Of a DNA stretch of 64,000 nt, positions 7,441 through 63,686 are shown piece after piece. A program made the translations under genes and the position numbers. The DNA is from an uncultured Dehalococcoidales bacterium (GTDB lineage: Bacteria > Chloroflexota > Dehalococcoidia > E44-bin15). Positions within the stretch are counted from its first letter, which is position 1. The number at the start of each line of letters is the position of its first letter. The DNA is taken from contig CAYRYW010000002.1 of assembly GCA_964428725.1 (NCBI GenBank), forward strand, positions 27,733 through 91,732, given 5' to 3'. Under the pieces are notes generated by a model, which made no database searches, was not told where the DNA came from, and saw only the letters and a list, made by a program, of their open reading frames with translations.

Positions 7441-7986
7441 ATGGAAAAGGAGGCGGTAATGGACCAGAAATTTATAAGTTTCATGCTTGAAAGACTAGGC
7501 GGGGAAGCGGCTGCACGGGAGGAGTACGAGAAGGCTCGTCCGGTGGAGATTGCCTTTGAGCTACCCGGCGAAGTGGTCACGATGATCGACAAGCAAGCTA
7601 GCGAGAAGGGTGTAGCCAAAAGCGAGGTCGTGGAGACGGCTGTGAGGGCATACGATGCGAGCGACAGAGCGCCTAAGAAGAAAAGACTGAATCTTGCTCC
7701 GGTTGAGAAGGTTATAAACGACGAGTGCGTTCTCAGGGTTTTGACTATCCAGACGGAGGGCGGCGGATCTGTTTTCATGACAGCTGTTCAGGTGGCTGAT
7801 TGCATTGACCACCTCGACAGGAACACCGCGAGGTCAACGCTGGATAGGCTGGTGCACTTCGGTAAAGTCATGCTTGACAAGAGGGGTCGCACGAACGAGT
7901 ACAAGATCAATCCTGAATACGTGAGGACGATTGATGTTCTGAGGGACGTTGTTGCCGGTGTCCTTAATGGAGAAGGTGAGTCCTGA
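7441..7986 (+). CDS. putative transcriptional regulator, ribbon-helix-helix N-terminus + winged-helix C-terminus
   Basis: GEVVTMIDKQASEKGVAKSEVVETAVRAY resembles CopG/Arc RHH; C-term RSTLDRLVHFGKVMLDKRGRTNEYKI wHTH-like. Confidence 0.45.
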   Translation: MEKEAVMDQKFISFMLERLGGEAAAREEYEKARPVEIAFELPGEVVTMIDKQASEKGVAKSEVVETAVRAYDASDRAPKKKRLNLAPVEKVINDECVLRVLTIQTEGGGSVFMTAVQVADCIDHLDRNTARSTLDRLVHFGKVMLDKRGRTNEYKINPEYVRTIDVLRDVVAGVLNGEGES

Positions 7987-8306
7987 TGGCCGACGACATA
8001 CTCTCCGTCAAGGAGTACCCAGGCAGCATTTATATGCGGCGCGGGAAAGAGGGTCTTGATGGGTGGGGGGTTACTCGTGAGACAGGTAGCGATATAGAGT
8101 ACATCCGAGGGGACATCGTGCGGGCCAGCGCGGCGCGTGCTGCGTTTATGTGGCACCACTTGACCGAGCGGGCAGGGTTGGCGCTTGCGGAGCTGAAAGG
8201 CGACTGTGAGGCCAATTGCAGAAACCCAGGGAAGTGCGACGAAGTGGAGCATTGCTACATTCGAAGCGCGATGGATATTCTTAAGAAGATGACAGGAGAG
8301 GGGTAG
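7986..8306 (+). CDS. hypothetical protein
   Basis: 106-aa ORF, TGATG overlap. Confidence 0.45.
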   Translation: MADDILSVKEYPGSIYMRRGKEGLDGWGVTRETGSDIEYIRGDIVRASAARAAFMWHHLTERAGLALAELKGDCEANCRNPGKCDEVEHCYIRSAMDILKKMTGEG

Positions 8307-8309
8307 CAG

Positions 8310-8561
8310 ATGGTGAGCGAAAAAGGTCTCTCAGAAGAAGAAAAGGCCGACCTGGACAAAGCCATTAGGGCGATGCTCAAGAAGGCTCGTGATCGTGGCG
8401 ATATTACGACGGAGCACTTCGTTAGTGTACCTCGCTCTAAGATCGTGGAGAGGCTCGACTCGTTTTGTGCGCATCATTGTCATGGCCGAGACGAGGGGTG
8501 CGATCCAGAGCGATGCCCGGTGGTTCAGGTTGTAGAGATGATAAAGTGGGACAAGGAATAG
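8310..8561 (+). CDS. hypothetical protein (C-terminal HHCHGRDEGCDPERC metal-binding-like)
   Basis: 83-aa ORF. Confidence 0.45.
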   Translation: MVSEKGLSEEEKADLDKAIRAMLKKARDRGDITTEHFVSVPRSKIVERLDSFCAHHCHGRDEGCDPERCPVVQVVEMIKWDKE

Positions 8562-8563
8562 GA

Positions 8564-8779
8564 ATGAAAATCAGCTCTGAATTAAGGTCTCATCTTGAGA
8601 TAGGGGTTCTCTTTCTGGCTCTGGTCTTGTTGATTGTTTGGCTCTCGACGAGGGGAGCTATCTGGGACACTTGCGAGTCGGAGTGCGCCCCGTACACGGT
8701 GGCGTTGTGCAGTCGAAAACTTGCTGTGTGTAAAACTGTTGACGGTTACTCCGTCAGGGAGAAAAAAGGTAAATTCTAA
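8564..8779 (+). CDS. small membrane-anchored Cys-rich protein
   Basis: ATG 8564 after GGAATAGGA; TM helix then CESECAPYTVALCSRKLAVCKTVDG. Confidence 0.4.
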   Translation: MKISSELRSHLEIGVLFLALVLLIVWLSTRGAIWDTCESECAPYTVALCSRKLAVCKTVDGYSVREKKGKF

Positions 8780-8780
8780 G

Positions 8781-8972
8781 ATGAAACAGACATTTTTAGA
8801 TTACACGTGTACACGAGAAACAGAGAAGGCGATCCTTGTCGAAGACGGTGGCGGGGAAGAGACATGGATCCCCAAATCACAGATCGACGACGATAGCGAG
8901 GTCTACAAAATGGGCACGGAGGGCGACCTGGTTATCTCGGAGTTTTTCGCTGGCAAGCTAGGGTGGTTGTAG
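8781..8972 (+). CDS. small acidic hypothetical protein
   Basis: 63-aa ORF from ATG 8781. Confidence 0.3.
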   Translation: MKQTFLDYTCTRETEKAILVEDGGGEETWIPKSQIDDDSEVYKMGTEGDLVISEFFAGKLGWL

Positions 8973-8994
8973 GGCTGCCAGAAAGAGGATTTAG

Positions 8995-9351
8995 ATGAAT
9001 GTTGAAGATGGGTCTTATGCTGATGTTGCGTCCGTTGAAGACTGTATGGTGACCACCACTGGGAAAGATGAGTACCTCACTGGGTATGAGGACGGGTTGG
9101 CCAAGGGCAAGCGGGACGCTAAGTTTAACAGTCAAGCTCTTCATATTGTGTACCTTACTTGCATTGCGTTCCTCTTTATCCTTTACATTGGATCGAGGTC
9201 TTTCAGGGCAATTGGTGAGCACGATGAACAGGTAATAGAGAACAAGTGCCGAGACATGTGTGAGCCATTTCGCATGGAGTCATGCGGCCCCAAGGCTAGG
9301 ACTGCAACGTGCAGGACTGTCGAGGGCTTTGTAGTGAGGAGTAAGGAATAA
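8995..9351 (+). CDS. membrane protein with C-terminal Cys-rich domain
   Basis: 118-aa ORF; TM helix; C-term CRDMCEPF...CGPKARTATCRTVEG similar to 8564 protein tail. Confidence 0.45.
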   Translation: MNVEDGSYADVASVEDCMVTTTGKDEYLTGYEDGLAKGKRDAKFNSQALHIVYLTCIAFLFILYIGSRSFRAIGEHDEQVIENKCRDMCEPFRMESCGPKARTATCRTVEGFVVRSKE

Positions 9352-9352
9352 A

Positions 9353-9583
9353 ATGAGTGAGTATACCTCCGAGCGGACAGTTTGGATAATCGTGGTGGCT
9401 CTTTTGCTTTTAGCGGCTACCTTGATTGAGTCTGGACAACGTGACGTTGCCCAAGAGGACGAAGGGCATGTTGCGCAGTGCGAGTGTGAGGAGTGCGAGC
9501 CGTGCGGAGCGTACTACGCTGAGCCATGCCCGACATTGGATGAACTTGAAGAAATGATTAATCTACTTAGGAGCCAGGAATGA
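9353..9583 (+). CDS. membrane-anchored Cys-rich protein with CPTLDELEE motif
   Basis: N-terminal TM, CECEECEPC...PCPTLDELEEMI. Confidence 0.45.
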   Translation: MSEYTSERTVWIIVVALLLLAATLIESGQRDVAQEDEGHVAQCECEECEPCGAYYAEPCPTLDELEEMINLLRSQE

Positions 9584-9822
9584 AAGACCGTAACGTGCTT
9601 TTTTGGCAGAGTGTCTTTATCGTCGTCTGTGCCGTTTTCATAGCCTTGCTCCTCCTTGATGGCGCCAGCTTCTCGGAGACACCAGAGGCACAGGAAGTCC
9701 TCGAAATACCTCTGCAAGAATGCCCATGCAGCTGCGAGGAAGTCATCAATTGCCTCGAAGACTGCAATGAGAAGCTAGAGGGAATCAACGAACTTCTTAA
9801 ACGCAGGTCAGGGGGCATGTGA
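9580..9822 (+). CDS. membrane-anchored Cys-rich protein
   Basis: TM then CPCSCEEVINCLEDCNEKLEGINELL; ATGA overlap. Confidence 0.45.
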   Translation: MKDRNVLFWQSVFIVVCAVFIALLLLDGASFSETPEAQEVLEIPLQECPCSCEEVINCLEDCNEKLEGINELLKRRSGGM

Positions 9823-56980: not shown

Positions 56981-59842
56981 ATGACAGATTACACGTACCC
57001 AGGGGTATATGTGCAGGAGCAGTCGAGCGGTCCAGGACCGATCACTGGCGTCTCCACATCGAACTTAGGATTGCTCGGTTGGACTAACAAGGGTCCAATC
57101 GACGAGCCTACACTGTGCACCAGCTTCTCTGATTTCAAGACGAAGTTCGGGACATTTACCGAAGACGGCCTAACGCCAACAATGGCGTATGCGTTCTTCC
57201 AAAACGGTGGGCAGCGTGCGTACGTCGTGCGTGCGGCTCCGTCCGATGCTGACGAGGCATACTACGACTACGAGTACACGATTCCCTCCGGGAGCGAAGA
57301 GGATCTTGGAAACACAGTCGAGGCGAGTGGCATTTACGAGCTTCAACTTGCACATCCCCCGGTTACGCCGGGTTCGGTGACGATTACCTTCGAGGGTACT
57401 CTCACCAATATCTTTACTGACCCAGGTTCGGACGGAGTGCTTGTCGCTTCTGGAACTGGCGCTGGCGGATCGGGATCTATCGATTACACCACTGGCGAAG
57501 TCAACATTACGCTGACCAACCCTGCTCAGTTCACAGGTAGCTCCTATCACATTGAGGCCGTGTACACTTATCGCGTGTTCCGCTTCCAGATGAAATGGCC
57601 TGGGGCTGCGGGGAATTATTACCGCGTAAGGATCACTCCTGGGTCTGATGACTACCAGGTGTCTGGACAGGCTGAGTGGACTCGGTTCAACGTGTTTGTT
57701 GACGAGGATATTGATGCCGGGGCAACTGGCATTTCCTCATGGGTGGTGGATGAGCAGTTTACCGACTTGGTATTCGACGATCCATCCGATCCGAACTACG
57801 TAGCCACGATTTTGAATGCTGATTACAATGGCTCGGATTTCTTCGAGGTCATTGGATACGGCAACGAAATGAACCCGACTGAGCTGGCTGGTGTTGCCAC
57901 GACAGCAGAGGATTTCTCTGCGACTATGGTACACAGTGACGACTCTTCGGTTGTCACTCCTGACCACTACAACACGAAGTGGAAGGGTTGGACTTACGAC
58001 CTAGCGAACGGAGCATATCCTGCGACGTTCACCGCCAGCTTCACATTTGAAGAGGGTGGGCCTCTCATGGCCAGAAGCGTTGCAGCGGCAGCTACTGCTA
58101 CTGTAGTGGGTCCAGATGTCTTCGATACGACATTGCTACCCATCACCGCTGGGACGGTTCGCATTAGCGCCAAGCTGACAGGTGACGGATTCGTAGACAT
58201 CGTGGACGACGGAGCCGGTAACCTCACAGAGGCAAAGACATCCACAGCCGTGGGTACAATCGATTACACAACCGGTGCCATTGCTGATACGGGTGCTGTA
58301 GCTAACCAACTCAACGTTGGCGGTGTTGGTCTTGCTGACACATTCGCAGTTGGCTCTGACATCCGCTGGTGCAGTGGGACTCAGATCGGAACCGGAGCAG
58401 CTGGTCCTGCGGCTGCGGCGGCTATCGTATCTCCTGGGACGGCTTCTGCTCCTGCGGCAATCACACCTGGCAGCGTTCGCATCTCTGCTACTCTGACTGG
58501 CGACGGAACGGTATCCATCGTTGATGACGGAGCGGGAAGTCTCTCTGAGTCGCTGACGAGCACTGTGGTTGGATCAATCGACTACACAACCGGAATCATC
58601 TCCGACACTGGCGCTACAGCGAATCAGCTGGACGTAGGCGGTGTTGGTCTTGCTGACACGTTCGTAGCGGGTTCTGCGATTTACTTGGAATGCCAGTACG
58701 CAGCCGTGGTCGACGTTTCTGATGATGGAGACGGATACCTCTCGCTGGCTACCACGCAGGCGACTGGTTATCCTCAGAAGTTCGTTCTTGATTCCAACGG
58801 GACCAACGAGATCGATTACACGACTGGCAACTTTACGTTGACCTGGTCGGTGAGTGGGAATCCTGCTCTCAGCATTTCCTCGGCGGTCACTCAGGTAGCC
58901 ACGTACTATACATACCCAAGCACAAGCATTGAAGGGGAGATGGCGCTGGGAAGCAACGGATCTGCGATGACGTCTTCGGACATCGTTGGAGCGTCCTTGG
59001 CTTCTGACCAGAAGGGCCTCTGGGCGTTTGGCAAGGTTGATGAGTTGATGCAGTTAGTTGCATCCGACTTCCAGACCGATGTCACTGTTGCCGACGCGCT
59101 AATCACCTATGCAGAATTGACACAGGACAAGTTCGTTATCCTGACAGTTCCTGCTGGACTGACTCCGCAAGAAGCTCTCACTTGGAAGAAATTCCAGTTG
59201 AACAAGTACACCTCCTACGCTGCTTTATACTACCCGCACATCAAGATCATCGATCCTGTGACGGATGTAGCGACAGACGTTCCTTGTGGTGGTCACGTAG
59301 CAGGCGTCTATGCGCGTACTGATACAGTCCGCAACGTAGGCAAGGCTCCTGCGGGCACCGACGACGGTCGTCTTAACTGGGCAATCGGCCTAGAGCAGGA
59401 TCTAACTCCTGAGCAAGTCGGAACGGTATATCCGAACCGAATCAACTGCTTGGTTCAATGGCCGCACACTGGTCGATGCGTATGGGGTGCTCGCACTCTA
59501 GACATCGCAGGCGGAGAATGGCCGTACATCCAGGGTCGTCGTTTGTTCATGTTCCTGAAGAAGTCCGTGTTCAACGCGACTCATGGTCATGTGTTCAAAA
59601 ACAACGGACCTCAGCTGTGGTCTGCCATCAGAACTCAGGTTTCCAGCTTCATGACAGGTTTGTTCCAGGCCGGTTATTTCGCGGGAACCACTCCGGACGA
59701 GTCGTTCTTCGTAGTATGCGACCGAACGAACAATCCTCAGAACACCGTGGATCAGGGCATTGTATTCTGTGACGTTGGTGCAGCTACCAACAAACCAGCA
59801 GAATATTTGGTATTTAGATTTTCCCAAAGAAGCCTAGCATAA
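56981..59842 (+). CDS. contractile tail sheath protein (953 aa, with internally duplicated insertion domain)
   Basis: N-terminus YTYPGVYVQEQ typical of sheath proteins; conserved C-terminal region; internal repeat 58150-58375 / 58465-58690. Confidence 0.75.
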   Translation: MTDYTYPGVYVQEQSSGPGPITGVSTSNLGLLGWTNKGPIDEPTLCTSFSDFKTKFGTFTEDGLTPTMAYAFFQNGGQRAYVVRAAPSDADEAYYDYEYTIPSGSEEDLGNTVEASGIYELQLAHPPVTPGSVTITFEGTLTNIFTDPGSDGVLVASGTGAGGSGSIDYTTGEVNITLTNPAQFTGSSYHIEAVYTYRVFRFQMKWPGAAGNYYRVRITPGSDDYQVSGQAEWTRFNVFVDEDIDAGATGISSWVVDEQFTDLVFDDPSDPNYVATILNADYNGSDFFEVIGYGNEMNPTELAGVATTAEDFSATMVHSDDSSVVTPDHYNTKWKGWTYDLANGAYPATFTASFTFEEGGPLMARSVAAAATATVVGPDVFDTTLLPITAGTVRISAKLTGDGFVDIVDDGAGNLTEAKTSTAVGTIDYTTGAIADTGAVANQLNVGGVGLADTFAVGSDIRWCSGTQIGTGAAGPAAAAAIVSPGTASAPAAITPGSVRISATLTGDGTVSIVDDGAGSLSESLTSTVVGSIDYTTGIISDTGATANQLDVGGVGLADTFVAGSAIYLECQYAAVVDVSDDGDGYLSLATTQATGYPQKFVLDSNGTNEIDYTTGNFTLTWSVSGNPALSISSAVTQVATYYTYPSTSIEGEMALGSNGSAMTSSDIVGASLASDQKGLWAFGKVDELMQLVASDFQTDVTVADALITYAELTQDKFVILTVPAGLTPQEALTWKKFQLNKYTSYAALYYPHIKIIDPVTDVATDVPCGGHVAGVYARTDTVRNVGKAPAGTDDGRLNWAIGLEQDLTPEQVGTVYPNRINCLVQWPHTGRCVWGARTLDIAGGEWPYIQGRRLFMFLKKSVFNATHGHVFKNNGPQLWSAIRTQVSSFMTGLFQAGYFAGTTPDESFFVVCDRTNNPQNTVDQGIVFCDVGAATNKPAEYLVFRFSQRSLA

Positions 59843-59866
59843 CCGAGGATTTTGACTGTGAATTGT

Positions 59867-59895
59867 TTGACACAGCATTCTGTTTCCAATAGAAG
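59867..59895 (+). promoter_or_regulatory. possible promoter TTGACA-N17-TAGAAG for endonuclease gene
   Basis: gtTTGACAcag... weak -10. Confidence 0.25.
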
Positions 59896-59920
59896 CGCAG
59901 CACATGTTGCTGTGAAAGAA

Positions 59921-60790
59921 ATGGAGACTAATATGGTGTTGTCAAGCGAGGAGCAGTTGGAAGTTGTTAGGCTGTACGAGGGTGACGATATGACGACGAA
60001 GGGCATTGCGAGCAGATTTGGTGTCTCTGATACCACTGTCCGCAATGTTCTCCGTAGTCATGGGATCACTCCTCACAGGGGGAGTAAGGCGATTTTGCCA
60101 GAGGCAGAGGATCGTATGATTTCTCTGTATGAATCTGGCCTCAATGTCCATGATGTCGCCAAGGGGTGCGGTGTTGTTCCGTCCACGGTTCTGAAGGTTC
60201 TGCGTCGCAGAGGGATCGAGCGTCGAGCGAATGTTAAGCGCAAGGTTCTTTCCGATGAGCAACGTTTGGAGCTTGCTCGTAAATACGCGGACGGATCTAC
60301 ATTTAGCGACTTAGAGAGTGAGTACAAGGTGTCTTGCTCGGTGGTCAAGAGTTGCTTGGATGAATTCAATGTTGAGCACCGAACCAGTGGCAGGGCCGGG
60401 TCGATTGAGTACATGGACACCCTTGGTCAAACGTGGATGTTCAAATCGACCTGGGAGCATCTTTACGCGCAGTGGCTGGACAAAGGGGGCTTCAGGTGGT
60501 CGTATGAGCCGCGCAGTTTCGATCTGAGCGAGCGACGGTGCTACACACCAGATTTCTCTGTGGTTGTCGATGGGTCTGTTGAATACCACGAGGTAAAGGG
60601 TTGGCTTAATGAAAAGGCAGAGGATCGCATGCGTGAGTTTGTGTCCATGTATCCGAGCGAGACGCTTGTTCTCGTTGGGCCTTCTGACATGGCGAGACTA
60701 GGATTGGTAGAAGAATGGTATCAGCGGCATTCGATGGCGGATGTCGTCGATGCTTTTAAGGCGTCCCTGGTAGCGAAGGAGGAGAGATGA
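59921..60790 (+). CDS. free-standing homing-endonuclease-like protein: 3 tandem HTH (NUMOD1-like) modules + PD-(D/E)xK nuclease domain
   Basis: Repeats EEQLEVVRLYEG..TKGIASRFGVSDTTVRNVLR x3; nuclease motifs E.L, YTPDF, VEYHEVKGW; start could be 59852 (TTG) or 59933. Confidence 0.55.
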   Translation: METNMVLSSEEQLEVVRLYEGDDMTTKGIASRFGVSDTTVRNVLRSHGITPHRGSKAILPEAEDRMISLYESGLNVHDVAKGCGVVPSTVLKVLRRRGIERRANVKRKVLSDEQRLELARKYADGSTFSDLESEYKVSCSVVKSCLDEFNVEHRTSGRAGSIEYMDTLGQTWMFKSTWEHLYAQWLDKGGFRWSYEPRSFDLSERRCYTPDFSVVVDGSVEYHEVKGWLNEKAEDRMREFVSMYPSETLVLVGPSDMARLGLVEEWYQRHSMADVVDAFKASLVAKEER

Positions 60791-61548
60791 GTACTGAAGT
60801 TATCCCAGCTGTGCAGGTGCACGAGGTCATAACCGGCGTGACATTAGGGGGAGATCCTCCAGATGTAGACGGCACGGACGAGACGCTCTACAGAGGGCGC
60901 ATCCAGGAATGGCTAGGCGCTTCGCAGGGCGGAGAATTCTCGGCTCCGGATGGCATAGGGATGCGAGTCTCTCAGGTCTTCTGGAACTTGGATTGTGCCA
61001 CTGACCCGGATGTCTCCATTTACTTGGTAGACGACGGTGGAATCGAATATCTCGTTAGTACGGAGAGTGCTCTTTCGGGGAGCTACATCCAGACAAACGG
61101 CGGGATACTCGTTCCTCCTTCGTTCAAGCTCCGGGTTAAGGCGAATGTGGCGATTGATTCAGCCACATCGGTAGCCTCTGAAGATACAGGGGTTACAGGG
61201 GATGGAACGACATCAGATTACAGCGTTCAGCTTGCTAATCGTCCTGTTACCACGTCGTCTGTTTCACTGGTCGCTGGTTCTGTCACTTTCACCGATAACG
61301 GCGCAGGCGTTCTAACGGGTGCAGGCGGCGGCGGCGGAACAGGGACTATCAACTATGTGACAGGGGCTGTTGAGATCACGGTGACTACACCTAGTGATTT
61401 CAATGGAACGAATGTGATTGCCACGTATGATTATGACAGCGTGGGTCGTGTGATGGTTTACACGGCGCAGGAATGGGGAACGTTGACAACTTCCTTGTTC
61501 GGCCAAATAGGAACACAAGTATTACCACCGGCCATGCAAAGATCGTAA
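60787..61548 (+). CDS. tail protein paralogous to sheath N-terminal insertion domain
   Basis: NRPVTTSSVSLVAG...DNGAGVLTGAGGGGGTGTINYVTGAVEITVTTPSDF parallels sheath HPPVTPGSVTITF...GSGSIDYTTGEVNITLTNPAQF. Confidence 0.5.
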   Translation: MSTEVIPAVQVHEVITGVTLGGDPPDVDGTDETLYRGRIQEWLGASQGGEFSAPDGIGMRVSQVFWNLDCATDPDVSIYLVDDGGIEYLVSTESALSGSYIQTNGGILVPPSFKLRVKANVAIDSATSVASEDTGVTGDGTTSDYSVQLANRPVTTSSVSLVAGSVTFTDNGAGVLTGAGGGGGTGTINYVTGAVEITVTTPSDFNGTNVIATYDYDSVGRVMVYTAQEWGTLTTSLFGQIGTQVLPPAMQRS

Positions 61549-61566
61549 GGCTGGAAGGAGAGAGTT

Positions 61567-62091
61567 ATGTCACGAGCAGCAGTCGATGATCTTATGCAAG
61601 GATTCCGGTTCCACGTTGTCGCTCAAACGGCAGGCGGAGAGAATCCCCTTGAGTATGCTCGCCAGGGTGAATACCAGGGCGGTGGGCAAGCCGGTTTCAC
61701 GTCGGCAACTCTTCCTGAGCTATCGGTAGAGGTCGCTGAGTACAGAGAAGGCACATTCCAGTGGACTCAGAAGTACGCTGGCGTTCCTACTGTCTCCGAC
61801 GTCTCCTTGATGCGTGGTGTTGCGAAGCAGGATACTGCATTCTTGGACTGGGTAAGAGCCTCAGTTGATGGAGAAGAGTATCGTTGCGACGTAACCATTT
61901 ACCACTACCAACGCACAGAGATGGGTCAAGCAAGCCAGTCTGAGGTTGGAGACGACATCCGTCGCGTGGAATGCAAAAACTGTGTTCCTATTCGTGGTAA
62001 AGCGGCTGGCGATTTCGATTCAACATCTTCCGAAGTCTCTGTTTCTGAAGTTGACTTCGCGTTGGAATCTTTCGAGATCAAAACTTCGTAG
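61567..62091 (+). CDS. tail tube protein
   Basis: 174 aa; N-term LMQGFRFHV; directly after sheath module; paralogous to exteins of next gene. Confidence 0.6.
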   Translation: MSRAAVDDLMQGFRFHVVAQTAGGENPLEYARQGEYQGGGQAGFTSATLPELSVEVAEYREGTFQWTQKYAGVPTVSDVSLMRGVAKQDTAFLDWVRASVDGEEYRCDVTIYHYQRTEMGQASQSEVGDDIRRVECKNCVPIRGKAAGDFDSTSSEVSVSEVDFALESFEIKTS

Positions 62092-62108: not shown

Positions 62109-63686
62109 ATGGCCAGGAGTCGCACAGAAGATCTGATGTTAACGCATCGTTTCTGGCTAATGGACGTCGTCCCTAGCGCTACGTTTCCCTTCCTTGTTTT
62201 AGGTACGCCCTTCATGGGTTTCCAGTCGATCACCTCTCCTGAGTACACGGCAGAAATGGTCGAGATCAAAGAGTTGAACTCGATGTACAAGAAGTACGGG
62301 TACGGGGGAGGCTCGGTCTCCCCTATTACTCTTACTCGTGGCGTGCGCGGATACGACGAAACAATGTGGAACTGGATGCAGACGGCTATTCGTGGAAATG
62401 ATATGACGAATCGCCATCTCGTCCTTCTCCATTTCACAAACATGGCCATGCCGGTAGGTGGAGATAGCGATCTCCCGTTTGACGCTTGGGAGACCAGGCC
62501 GTTTTTGCCGGGCAAGGCATGGCTTCTGTGGGATTGCTTAGATGAGGACACTGAGATCCTGACAAGCAAAGGATGGAGGGGAAGCGATGGTGTTAAGGAG
62601 GGCGATCTTGTTTACTCGATGAATGTCGAGACGGAGAAGCTGGAAACAGTCCCAGTTGATGGGTATGTGAAGCGTAGAAGGGCGCCTGATGATGACATGG
62701 TTTCTGTAGCAGGACGACGTTTTAACTTCAGGGTTACGGGTAAACACGGGTTCTACCTCAAGCCTTCCAATGGTGGCGCCATGGTTCGGCATCAGGCTGC
62801 GGATCTTTTGTCGTTAAAAGGAGAGCACTTGATGCCCGTTGCTTCTCGCATGTCTAGCGAACACAAGGGTGTCGATTTGACCGACGATGAGCTTCGTTTT
62901 GTCGCGTGGTTTGTAACGGATGGTCACCTCAAGGAAGGCCAGAGGCTGATCATATCCCAAGCCAAAGAATACCGTAACGACATTAGGGATCTTCTGAGTA
63001 GGATAGGCTTGCACTTCACGGAGCGGGTTATTGAGCGATCCGTGGATGATGGTTCGTATGCGAATGGCAAGCCTCTTCACGAGTTTGGCGTCCCCAAGGG
63101 AACGGGGGGCAAGGGCCTGTCCGGGTGGAGTAGGTACAGCGAGTATCTTGACAAGGATATTTCTGAATTGCTTCACGACATGACCCGTGATCAGTTTATG
63201 GTTTTCTGGAAAGAGCTTGTAAAAGGAAATGGCTTCTTCCTGAATGAAGAAGATGACGATTGGATAAACAATTCTCAGTTGTGGTGTCCCTCCAAGGAGC
63301 AGGCTGACGCCCTTGTGTGGATGGCGACGGTGCGCGGAGTAGCGCTTAGCTGCTATGAGCGGGAGACAGAAAATGGGCATGCTATGTATTGCCTTACGGC
63401 ACGGGACAAAGAGTGGATAATTGTTCGCCCTGGACGCATGGCGGAAAGAGAAAAGCCCCTTATCAAAGAGAGGGTTTTTGTAGATGAATTCGTATGGTGC
63501 GTATCGAATAGGAATCGCAGTATCGTAACAAGAAGAGGCGGAAAGGTCGCTATCATGGGTAATTGCCTCCCGACTCGGTACAAGGCGGCGTCAGACTTCG
63601 ACGCAACCAGTTCGAGCGTCAGTATCTCGGAGCTAGAGATACAACCCCAAGCGGTCACAGAAATGACCCTGCTGGATCCGACGTAG
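62109..63686 (+). CDS. tail tube protein paralog precursor with intein
   Basis: Exteins LMLTHRFWLMDV... and CLPTRYKAASDFDATSSSVSISELE parallel 61567 protein. Confidence 0.65.
   Translation: MARSRTEDLMLTHRFWLMDVVPSATFPFLVLGTPFMGFQSITSPEYTAEMVEIKELNSMYKKYGYGGGSVSPITLTRGVRGYDETMWNWMQTAIRGNDMTNRHLVLLHFTNMAMPVGGDSDLPFDAWETRPFLPGKAWLLWDCLDEDTEILTSKGWRGSDGVKEGDLVYSMNVETEKLETVPVDGYVKRRRAPDDDMVSVAGRRFNFRVTGKHGFYLKPSNGGAMVRHQAADLLSLKGEHLMPVASRMSSEHKGVDLTDDELRFVAWFVTDGHLKEGQRLIISQAKEYRNDIRDLLSRIGLHFTERVIERSVDDGSYANGKPLHEFGVPKGTGGKGLSGWSRYSEYLDKDISELLHDMTRDQFMVFWKELVKGNGFFLNEEDDDWINNSQLWCPSKEQADALVWMATVRGVALSCYERETENGHAMYCLTARDKEWIIVRPGRMAEREKPLIKERVFVDEFVWCVSNRNRSIVTRRGGKVAIMGNCLPTRYKAASDFDATSSSVSISELEIQPQAVTEMTLLDPT
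62535..63563 (+). mobile_element. intein (343 aa) in tail tube paralog, LAGLIDADG-type
   Basis: CLDEDTEILT (block A), RVTGKHGFYL (block B), FVAWFVTDGHL and FWKELVKGNGFF dodecapeptide motifs, C-term FVWCVSNRNRSIV...VAIMGN|C (penultimate Gly). Confidence 0.65.

Follow-up and report, generated by a model that had tools for sequence, protein, structure and literature searches.

Free-standing homing endonuclease genes are already well known in phages. In T4-like phages they encode the GIY-YIG Seg and the HNH Mob enzymes, such as SegB, SegG and MobE (PMC2988022, PMC2790892, PMC2330249), and the characterized free-standing phage enzymes in our sources are either GIY-YIG or HNH proteins. A 2012 survey of the PD-(D/E)xK superfamily lists two homing families with a restriction fold, I-Ssp6803I and the EDxHD/Vsr-like I-Bth0305I (PMC3424549). 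Here we describe a gene immediately 3' of a phage tail sheath gene in a 64,000-nucleotide stretch of DNA (referred to as the window), which in all likelihood is a selfish, free-standing homing endonuclease gene. Like the Seg and Mob genes, it is a stand-alone, intergenic nuclease gene that sits beside a conserved essential gene, occurs sporadically among relatives, joins a modular DNA-binding region to a nuclease, and leaves the expression signals of its neighbors undisturbed; it would be expected to spread by cleaving endonuclease-less genomes in co-infection. Unlike them, it encodes a PD-(D/E)xK catalytic domain of the T7-endonuclease-I/DUF1064 type and a triple tandem helix-turn-helix (HTH) array rather than NUMOD or zinc-finger modules, and homing is in this case what we infer. 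I-Ssp6803I and I-Bth0305I provide a precedent for a restriction-enzyme-like fold in homing, but both are intron-encoded and neither has a tandem HTH array.

Two other enzymes resemble the nuclease part of the protein. T7 endonuclease I, a small junction resolvase that forms a domain-swapped dimer and selects its substrates by structure, has no HTH modules. Bax1 is the partner of the XPB helicase in archaeal repair; it has no HTH array and shows no mobile-element behavior.

The endonuclease ORF is complete between the sheath stop codon (TAA, 59840-59842) and the next start, the neighboring ORFs are intact, and its TGA overlaps the ATG of the following 253-aa gene (Table 1). The position directly after the sheath stop is thus as originally predicted, but the length of up to 312 residues is not: translation likely starts at ATG 59921 or at ATG 59933, the latter preceded at a distance of 6 nt by a GGAG that we read at 59923-59926. 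These starts fit the N termini of homologs, and nucleotide homology to a decayed copy in a related locus (L045) begins at 59934; the protein thus has 289 or 285 residues.

Table 1. Features at the sheath-endonuclease locus (window coordinates; residues numbered from ATG 59921)
Feature	Coordinates	Strand	Residues or extent	Basis or remark
Tail sheath gene	56981..59842	+		Pfam Phage_sheath_1/1C, phrog_23
Sheath gene 3' end	59783..59842	+		encodes peptide NKPAE(F/Y)(I/L)VFRF(Q/S)Q(K/R)
Spacer	59843..59920	+	sheath stop to endonuclease start	blastn/alignment vs L040/L041
Mechanical ORF	59852..60790	+		starts with TTG 59852
Endonuclease gene	59921..60790	+	289 aa from ATG 59921	free-standing
HTH module 1	59945..60058	+	9-46	Pfam HTH_7/HTH_23; AlphaFold helices H9-20, H26-33, H37-46
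HTH module 2	60098..60208	+	60-96	Pfam HTH_38; helices H60-71, H76-83, H87-96
HTH module 3	60254..60364	+	112-148	phrog_4629, HTH_Tnp_Tc3_2; helices H112-123, H128-135, H139-148
PD-(D/E)xK domain	60398..60700	+	160-260	profile, motif and Foldseek matches
Predicted catalytic residues	60455-60457; 60551-60553; 60590-60592; 60596-60598		E179; D211; E224; K226	
C-terminal helices	60713..60790	+		
253-aa gene	60787..61548	+		conserved all-beta protein, resident of the sheath-tube interval

Pfam HTH_7, HTH_23 and HTH_38 match the endonuclease above their own cut-offs, and HTH_Tnp_Tc3_2 falls narrowly below (31.3 versus 31.5 bits). The AlphaFold model (pLDDT 86) contains three times three helices in this region. 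The modules are tri-helical and arranged in tandem with a period of ∼51 aa, so that the predicted number of three modules holds while their predicted size of ∼40 aa does not. The top PHROG matches (phrog_8446, 7545 and 20467), which are labeled HNH endonuclease, cover residues 21-130 of the HTH region only, and a Pfam search of the endonuclease returned no HNH match. The 5' part of the gene shows no nucleotide similarity between the loci L015 and L017, and sequence comparison identifies the HTH region as the fast-evolving part of the protein.

The sequence WE(179)...YTPD(211)F...HE(224)VK(226)GW is invariant in nine of nine aligned homologs, and the 37 invariant columns of the alignment cluster in the nuclease domain; one further family member, P0039, has a histidine in place of the catalytic lysine. 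In the PDB, our domain profile matches the nuclease of Bax1 at E 0.004 and T7 endonuclease I at E 0.03, and the motifs align residue for residue, which confirms the C-terminal nuclease core (YTPDF...VEYHEVKGW) proposed from the sequence. The archaeal Bax1 nuclease domain (DUF790; PDB 6p66, 8gy8) is the best PDB match by both profile and Foldseek, and Foldseek matches of the nuclease core comprise Bax1 (E 7e-4), AF1548 and Hjc. The motifs FxSxxE...YTPDF...ExK correspond one-to-one with those of T7 endonuclease I (PDB 1m0d/1fzr/2pfj). Pfam places the domain outside its curated families: the DUF1064 profile (PF06356, gathering cut-off 24.7 bits) scores the window domain at 15.7 bits and matches six of eight members (best E 6e-4), and Phage_endo_I (PF05367, cut-off 29.1 bits) matches one of eight domain sequences (E 0.005). 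The catalytic E...PD...ExK tetrad of Phage_endo_I is nevertheless in register. Residues E179/D211/E224/K226 align with E20/D55/E65/K67, the catalytic residues of T7 endonuclease I. The comparison indicates a relation to Phage_endo_I at the superfamily level only. The I-Ssp6803I family (PF11645) and the EDxHD/Vsr-like type gave no match to the nuclease domain in Pfam searches to E 10, nor in the PDB. By its sequence, then, the gene product is a triple-HTH, PD-(D/E)xK protein with a conserved catalytic tetrad, and is predicted to cleave DNA.

The closest relatives of the window, L040 and L041, represent the empty site (93% amino acid identity in the sheath C terminus, 91% in tube1). Homology to L040 ends at 59882 and restarts at 60777, which places the left boundary of the insert between 59883 and ∼59910 and the right boundary at ∼60776/60777. 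The first 40 nt of the spacer (59843-59882) are common to L040, and so is AGGAGGAGAGATG upstream of the 253-aa gene. In the empty site of L040, a spacer of 131 nt separates the sheath gene from the 253-aa gene. The last endonuclease codons, AAG GAG GAG AGA TGA, include the Shine-Dalgarno sequence of the 253-aa gene as well as its start codon; the insert is trimmed such that its ribosome-binding site and start remain intact. The promoter-like TTGACA that had been assigned to the endonuclease exists (59867-59872), but it belongs to the spacer that L040 shares and that pre-exists in the empty site, and a promoter scan of 59600-61700 returned no sigma-70-like site. We thus reject a promoter of its own. 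In the window and in L001, the sheath gene and the endonuclease ORF share a reading frame with no stop between them. A conserved sheath-endonuclease read-through fusion is nevertheless rejected, as the gene is out of frame in L002 and preceded by an in-frame TAG in L004. Neither terminal inverted repeats nor target duplications are found at the insert. Rfam detects no intron family in the window and a tRNA search gave no hit, so that we also reject an intron-encoded origin. The endonuclease gene is not a transposon, an intron or an intein.

Presence of the gene is sporadic. Four of 34 IMG/VR loci located via the tube gene carry it, and besides L040 and L041 there are ∼30 other related loci without it. 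Wherever flanks are visible (12 of 12 loci, including the distant members P0039 and P0056), the family member lies directly 3' of the sheath stop. Carrier L001 and non-carrier L038, which share 95-98% nucleotide identity, are set apart by a clean insert of 0.9 kb, and the remnant in L045 is internally deleted, retaining endonuclease residues 5-51 and 261-289 only. The 6.7-kb sheath-tube region had no blastn match among 50,697 deposited phage genomes, and hence no cultured relative for comparing synteny. The gene shows the sporadic presence and absence at one locus among close relatives, and the intact active site joined to a DNA-binding region, that characterize the homing class. Instead of conserved synteny in a family devoid of homing features, we find many close relatives without the gene and a conserved motif. 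Together with the single fixed site, the empty sites in the closest relatives and the remnant in L045, this bears out the free-standing homing context of the original prediction.

The sheath peptide listed in Table 1 is kept in most of 40 loci and diverges in the most distant ones, and we regard its coding sequence as a candidate recognition region of the endonuclease. Over the final 33 nt of the sheath gene, L001 and L038 differ by 12 substitutions; the 123 nt before them are identical. By our count 9 of the 12 are synonymous, and the cluster is the densest substitution-only one in 10.5 kb (P 5e-8, Bonferroni-corrected 3e-4). It may represent a target or co-conversion footprint. Among nine carrier/non-carrier and four control pairs, the junction-adjacent excess is significant in L001/L038 only, so that a single pair underlies the proposed location of the target; in more divergent pairs, among them the window and L041, substitutions are not enriched in this way, and no nucleotide signature divides carrier from non-carrier sheath 3' ends across the clade.

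Endonuclease sequences are mostly 39-58% identical, whether the sheath C termini of the respective loci share 40 or 82% identity, and in L015/L017 the synonymous divergence (dS) is 0.59 in the endonuclease compared with 0.18 in the flank. By these sequence measures, divergence of the endonuclease is decoupled from that of its flanking genes. In L002/L020, dS matches that of the flanking sheath gene and dN/dS is 0.16; these estimates place the gene under purifying selection in this pair and speak for a functional gene.

We envisage the following homing cycle. The gene would be transcribed late, probably on transcripts that continue from the highly expressed gene of the sheath. The three tandem HTH modules would read a long, asymmetric DNA site, and the T7-endonuclease-I-like PD-(D/E)xK domain, whose catalytic residues are conserved, would cut the DNA. 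In co-infection, the enzyme may thus cut genomes of related phages without the gene; the most likely place is at or beside the conserved sheath 3' end or the junction between the sheath gene and the 253-aa gene, and repair by recombination from the carrier genome would copy the endonuclease gene into the cut genome. Carriers would be immune if the insertion and/or the silent changes in the last sheath codons, as seen in one genome pair, destroy the site. The L045 remnant could then reflect decay in the homing cycle. We infer cleavage, target site and gene conversion alike from these comparisons. Several observations speak against homing. The fixed position also fits ancient vertical inheritance if the gene was lost precisely and more than once; a useful, domesticated gene would account equally well for the purifying selection in L002/L020 and for inheritance together with the flanks in this pair; T7 endonuclease I is structure-selective and not sequence-specific; the substitution cluster is seen in one pair, with no carrier-wide nucleotide signature; and P0039 has histidine for the catalytic lysine.

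The alternative that fares best, though we consider it improbable, is a domesticated accessory nuclease, kept for a benefit to the phage such that its own spread is not the primary reason for its persistence. The enzyme could, for instance, degrade or exclude relatives in co-infection (interference competition, marker exclusion) or act on host DNA. The dN/dS of 0.16 with dS equal to the flanking sheath gene in L002/L020, catalytic residues that are intact in every full-length member aligned, and the tidy fit that preserves the expression signals of the downstream gene would all be accounted for. However, the gene is missing from the closest relatives and most of the clade and is decayed in L045, which marks it as dispensable, and the explanation overlaps with homing in that the same cleavage event would give both effects.

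The nuclease core aligns both to T7 endonuclease I and to resolvase folds of the Hjc type, and PHROG matches are labeled 'Holliday junction resolvase'. This would also suit a housekeeping junction resolvase or debranching enzyme in the manner of T7 endonuclease I or DUF1064 proteins, which would process branched intermediates of replication or recombination ahead of packaging and use its HTH modules as a mere tether to DNA. We find this very unlikely: the gene sits in the tail structural module and not in the replication module, the near-identical L038 and L040 would be left without the function, three sequence-reading HTH modules are atypical of junction resolvases, and the Phage_endo_I and DUF1064 scores are under the curated cut-offs. 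Even less probable is a regulator of late tail genes, with tandem HTH modules akin to sigma-70 region 4 and a relic or inactive nuclease. The strong HTH and sigma70_r4 matches and the location between late genes agree with such a role, but conservation in the protein is highest at the catalytic tetrad and its surrounding motifs, with the 37 invariant columns clustered in the nuclease domain, the HTH region evolves fast, and most relatives need no endonuclease to express these tail genes. A transposase-like or IS-type element is the least credible reading of all. It would fit the JGI names of P0005, P0008 and P0009 ('transposase-like protein'), the weak Pfam matches to HTH_Tnp_Tc3_2 and TnsD, and the Foldseek matches to the DNA-binding domains of Tc3 and Mos1. 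All such matches are confined to the HTH region, however, and no DDE or TnsA_N domain is matched. The insertion site is one and the same in 12 loci, the window contains no further copy or paralog, and neither inverted repeats at the ends nor duplications of the target site are found; the transposon is therefore rejected.

The HTH array of the endonuclease shares 30% identity over 164 aa, including all three modules, with gp070 of Burkholderia phage BcepSaruman (E 5e-19). Gp070 and its BcepSauron homolog are annotated as GIY-YIG homing endonucleases, and the GIY-YIG domain of gp070 is above the Pfam cut-off. Gp070 has an N-terminal GIY-YIG domain and a C-terminal array of four modules, whereas our protein has an N-terminal array followed by PD-(D/E)xK; the genomic context of gp070 differs as well. 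Wider relatives of our nuclease domain carry NUMOD3 modules, and one of them lies directly after a large terminase gene. At the sequence level, these combinations of HTH arrays and nucleases display the module shuffling typical of homing endonucleases. The nuclease domain forms ∼10,000 clusters at 50% identity, many of them fused to HTH or NUMOD3. One sub-family, of ∼40 clusters, is strictly associated with tail sheath genes of myoviruses and their conserved 3' end, across phages with no more than 30-40% identity in their structural proteins. Our search for a T7-endonuclease-I-like or DUF1064 homing endonuclease, in literature outside subscription journals, returned only PD-(D/E)xK surveys. 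We see about an even chance that the family is an uncharacterized homing lineage, which combines a T7-endonuclease-I/DUF1064-like PD-(D/E)xK core with a modular tandem HTH array of two to five modules.

If confirmed, the family would add a catalytic lineage to the homing endonuclease repertoire and a compact, modular scaffold for DNA recognition; should each HTH module read a few base pairs in series, it would amount to a site-specific nuclease scaffold that is modular by nature, and to a marker of gene flow and competition among uncultured phages with T4-like tails. As the second tube gene of the same phage contains an intein, confirmation would also present tail-module genes of uncultured large myoviruses as active arenas for selfish elements. 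For proteins of this family, the database labels 'HNH endonuclease', 'transposase-like' and 'endonuclease I' are misleading.

The endonuclease had been proposed to have homed into or next to a duplicated segment of the sheath gene, represented by the downstream 253-aa gene. This proposal fails, as the 253-aa gene is conserved in relatives without the endonuclease. We located 29 full-length homologs of the protein (47-99% identity) and one weak partial match, and the gene is present with and without the endonuclease (L006-L014, L016, L032, L040, L041 and L046); its distribution in these sequences shows that it is not part of the mobile element. The protein is modeled as two beta domains (pLDDT 83), and a fold search against the PDB returned no significant match (best E 0.011). 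A duplicated sheath fragment is rejected, the gene being resident in endonuclease-less relatives and only ∼80 aa being alike. The predicted homology to the N-terminal insertion domain of the sheath persists for one repeat module of this size and not for the rest: residues 145-216 share 46% identity with sheath residues 119-197 (E 2e-7), and weaker matches extend to sheath residues 387-434 and 509-543.

The endonuclease gene lies in a phage-type tail module, with further tail genes upstream of the sheath gene (ORF listing; Pfam and PHROG assignments). The TTG codon that opens the mechanically listed reading frame is unlikely to be its start. Homologue N termini agree with a start at ATG 59921, or at ATG 59933 with GGAG six bases upstream, and nucleotide homology to the remnant copy in locus L045 starts at 59934. 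The TGA stop overlaps the ATG of the 253-aa gene, and the last endonuclease codons traverse the Shine-Dalgarno sequence of that gene. In the window (59840-59935) and in the carrier locus L001 (9971-10003), the endonuclease ORF continues the sheath frame, uninterrupted by any stop codon beyond the sheath TAA, and read-through of the sheath stop codon would give a sheath-endonuclease fusion. The arrangement lacks conservation, L002 being out of frame and L004 having an in-frame TAG, and is probably coincidence. The original prediction assigned the gene its own weak promoter-like TTGACA; this hexamer (59867-59872) has no -10 partner and falls within a spacer common to the empty site. We infer that expression via read-through from the sheath transcript is more likely.

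Tail module genes around the endonuclease gene (window positions)
Feature	Position	Strand	Source and remarks
Tail sheath gene, 953 aa	56981..59842	+	ORF listing, Pfam and PHROG
Endonuclease ORF as listed mechanically (TTG start)	59852..60790	+	ORF listing; directly 3' of sheath gene
253-aa ORF	60787..61548	+	ORF listing
tube1, T4 gp19-type tube gene	61567..62091		ORF listing, Pfam and PHROG
tube2, T4 gp19-type tube gene	62109..63686		ORF listing, Pfam and PHROG

The protein has the three tandem HTH modules proposed from the sequence, with visibly similar sequences and a repeat period of ∼51 rather than ∼40 amino acids. HTH_7, HTH_23, and HTH_38 score above Pfam cut-offs and HTH_Tnp_Tc3_2 marginally below its own. 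An AlphaFold model from nine sequences (mean pLDDT 86) contains three tri-helical modules (residues 9-46, 60-96, and 112-148), an α/β domain (residues 160-260), and C-terminal helices. Foldseek relates the HTH part to Tc3/Pax paired-type bipartite DNA-binding domains and the nuclease part to Bax1, AF1548, and Hjc resolvases. The predicted C-terminal nuclease core is borne out by invariant motifs and by profile matches. In an alignment of nine homologues (40-50% identity), the invariant positions are clustered in the C-terminal domain (S176, W178, E179, Y182, A183; T209-P210-D211-F212; E221-Y-H-E224-V-K226-G-W-L). Searched against the PDB, a profile of this domain retrieves the nuclease domain of Bax1 (E 0.004) as well as T7 endonuclease I (E 0.03), placing FKSxWE, YTPDF, and hEVKG opposite FRSGLE, YTPDF, and VETKG of the latter, motifs that contain the catalytic residues E20, D55, E65, and K67 of T7 endonuclease I. 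Pfam DUF1064 is matched by 6 of 8 members and Phage_endo_I by one of 8, all below gathering cut-offs, and BFVD structure matches include phage proteins named 'Endonuclease I' of about the same length. The PHROG label 'HNH endonuclease' stems from matches limited to the HTH region; the HNH motif is absent, and we reject this identity. The homologue P0039 (L048 4001-5185) has five HTH modules, and its catalytic ExK reads E-V-H, with histidine in place of lysine; this copy may be inactive or may use a variant mechanism.

Judged from sequence and genomic context, the window gene is probably a free-standing homing endonuclease gene, predicted to join a tandem-HTH array to a T7-endonuclease-I-like PD-(D/E)xK core. 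The free-standing context first proposed is supported by a fixed site, sporadic presence, empty sites, and a remnant. The sheath stop lies directly 5' of the gene in every member with readable flanks (window, L001, L002/3, L004/5, L011, L015, L017, L020, L047, L048/49, and the distant L052). The tube protein retrieved 34 loci from IMG/VR, and 30 of them lack the endonuclease, the sheath gene being followed directly by the 253-aa counterpart or a tube gene; both states occur in every sub-clade. Synteny with the closest relative, L040/L041 (∼83% nucleotide identity; amino acid identity 93% for the sheath C terminus, 91% for tube1, and 88% for the 253-aa protein), reveals an empty site at which homology ends at 59882 and restarts at 60777, with 82 unrelated bases between. 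The near-identical phages L001 and L038 (94.8% identical upstream and 98.0% downstream of the insert) are separated by a clean 0.9-kb insert, present in L001, that leaves AGGAGG and ATG of the tube gene in place. In L045, an in-frame internal deletion removed two HTH modules and the catalytic core, reducing the endonuclease to codons 5-51 and 261-289. A gene that is present in some relatives, absent from others, and decayed in yet another, all at a single site, follows the classical life cycle of a homing endonuclease.

A beneficial role as a 'weapon' in co-infection may exist, acting through the same mechanism as homing. A housekeeping resolvase and a late-gene regulator are both hard to reconcile with the absence of the gene from near-identical phages. 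We reject a transposon (no terminal or target repeats, a single fixed site, no transposase catalytic domain) and an intron or intein origin (no Rfam intron match, neighboring ORFs intact).

Only nine full-length relatives were found in a 5.8-billion-sequence database, and no full-length homologue in deposited phages. An exhaustive search with the nuclease-domain profile returned 39 clusters at E < 1e-30, nearly all of 225-394 aa and nearly all with the nuclease domain at the C terminus, and ∼10,000 clusters at E < 1e-3. L045 (GCA_003704735.1, RCNB010037452.1, positions 1-773) has no sheath gene 5' of its remnant; upstream are the C-terminal 80 aa of an aminotransferase-like protein and a 290-nt AT-rich spacer, and homology to the window begins exactly at the endonuclease start. 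Either the assembly is chimeric here, or a rearrangement took place at the boundary of the endonuclease.

Gp070 of the Burkholderia phage BcepSaruman, annotated as a homing endonuclease, has a C-terminal array of four HTH modules that aligns with the triple array of the window protein (30% identity over 164 aa, E 5e-19), and its N-terminal part scores above the Pfam cut-off as a GIY-YIG domain. One DNA-binding array is here common to two nuclease classes (L053, MK552140.1 29498-30469), and homing endonucleases characteristically combine one such array with different nuclease cores. Fusions to HTH and NUMOD3 modules occur among more distant relatives of the nuclease domain. One of these, P0053 (L050 4001-4972), combines NUMOD3 with a core resembling endonuclease I and overlaps the 3' end of a large terminase gene. 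It probably represents a further free-standing homing endonuclease in the wider superfamily; the site directly after the large terminase gene is another classical homing endonuclease site. Searching the literature, we found no experimental characterization of a tandem-HTH protein with a T7-endonuclease-I-like core as a homing enzyme. The homing enzymes of PD-(D/E)xK fold in a 2012 survey are only I-Ssp6803I and the Vsr-like I-Bth0305I (PMC3424549).

Pairwise identity of the endonucleases is mostly 39-58%, at 40% or 82% identity of the flanking sheath C termini alike. The sheath C termini of L015 and L017 are 95% identical and their endonucleases 65%, with a synonymous divergence of 0.59 in the endonuclease versus 0.18 in the flank. 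The 5' 350 nt of the gene (L015 5560-5902, HTH modules 1-2) are without nucleotide similarity, the nuclease part is ∼85% identical, and the sheath 3' ends are 92% identical. The pattern suggests allele replacement or swapping, or very fast divergence of the DNA-reading modules. For L002 and L020, synonymous divergence equals that of the flank (0.23 versus 0.22) and dN/dS is 0.16, which marks the gene, when co-inherited, as a functional coding sequence under selection.

The sheath C-terminal peptide NKPAE(F/Y)(I/L)VFRF(Q/S)Q(K/R)... is kept in most of the clade and divergent only in the most distant loci; homing endonucleases typically exploit conserved sequence of this kind. L001 and L038 are identical over 123 bases and then differ by 12 substitutions within the final 33 bases of the sheath gene, 9 of them synonymous by our count. 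This is the densest substitution-only cluster across 6.5 kb upstream and 4 kb downstream (binomial P 5e-8; 3e-4 corrected for all windows). It could have arisen as a footprint of immunity at the recognition site or through co-conversion of a short tract from a donor, either of which would indicate homing. The putative target at the sheath 3' end is suggestive only, because eight more divergent carrier/non-carrier pairs, window versus L041 included, show no junction-adjacent excess of substitutions.

The gene was originally thought to have homed into or next to a duplicated sheath segment, the 60787 product being homologous to a sheath insertion domain. The homology holds for one module, residues 145-216, which correspond to sheath residues 119-197 (46% identity, E 2e-7) and, less strongly, to two other copies of the module within the sheath. 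The proposed homing context does not hold, since the 253-aa gene, with 29 full-length homologues of its product, also occurs at full length in relatives that lack the endonuclease. A 162-aa version without the sheath-like module is found in more distant relatives, and L001/L038 have no counterpart. The protein model has two β domains and a disordered tail, with no significant PDB match. The 253-aa gene is a resident gene, probably structural, and not a duplication made or targeted by the endonuclease. Within the 953-aa sheath, the module shared with the 253-aa protein (signature ..G.G.IDY.TG..) occurs in three or four copies (residues 119-197, 387-434, 509-543, and ∼607-621), which account for the unusual sheath length.

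Homing elements of several kinds appear to make the sheath-tube module a hotspot. The tube2 gene contains a 343-aa intein-like insert (62535-63563), which starts with Cys (CLDEDTEIL), ends in ...IMGN followed by Cys, and has a weakly detected LAGLIDADG-like motif (LAGLIDADG_3 E 0.15; PI-MtuI E 0.5); it is therefore a second selfish element within 2 kb of the endonuclease gene. The host protein is uninterrupted (∼180 aa) in L040, L045, L046, and most other loci, and a homologous insert occupies this position in L004. The distant relatives L036/L037 have ∼2.1 kb of extra sequence between tube1 and tube2 (7492-9594), which may be another insertion in this module. L048, the phage with P0039, carries a free-standing LAGLIDADG_1 gene directly upstream of its sheath gene (352-909) and a LAGLIDADG_3 match in the gene after the tube gene (8876-9185).
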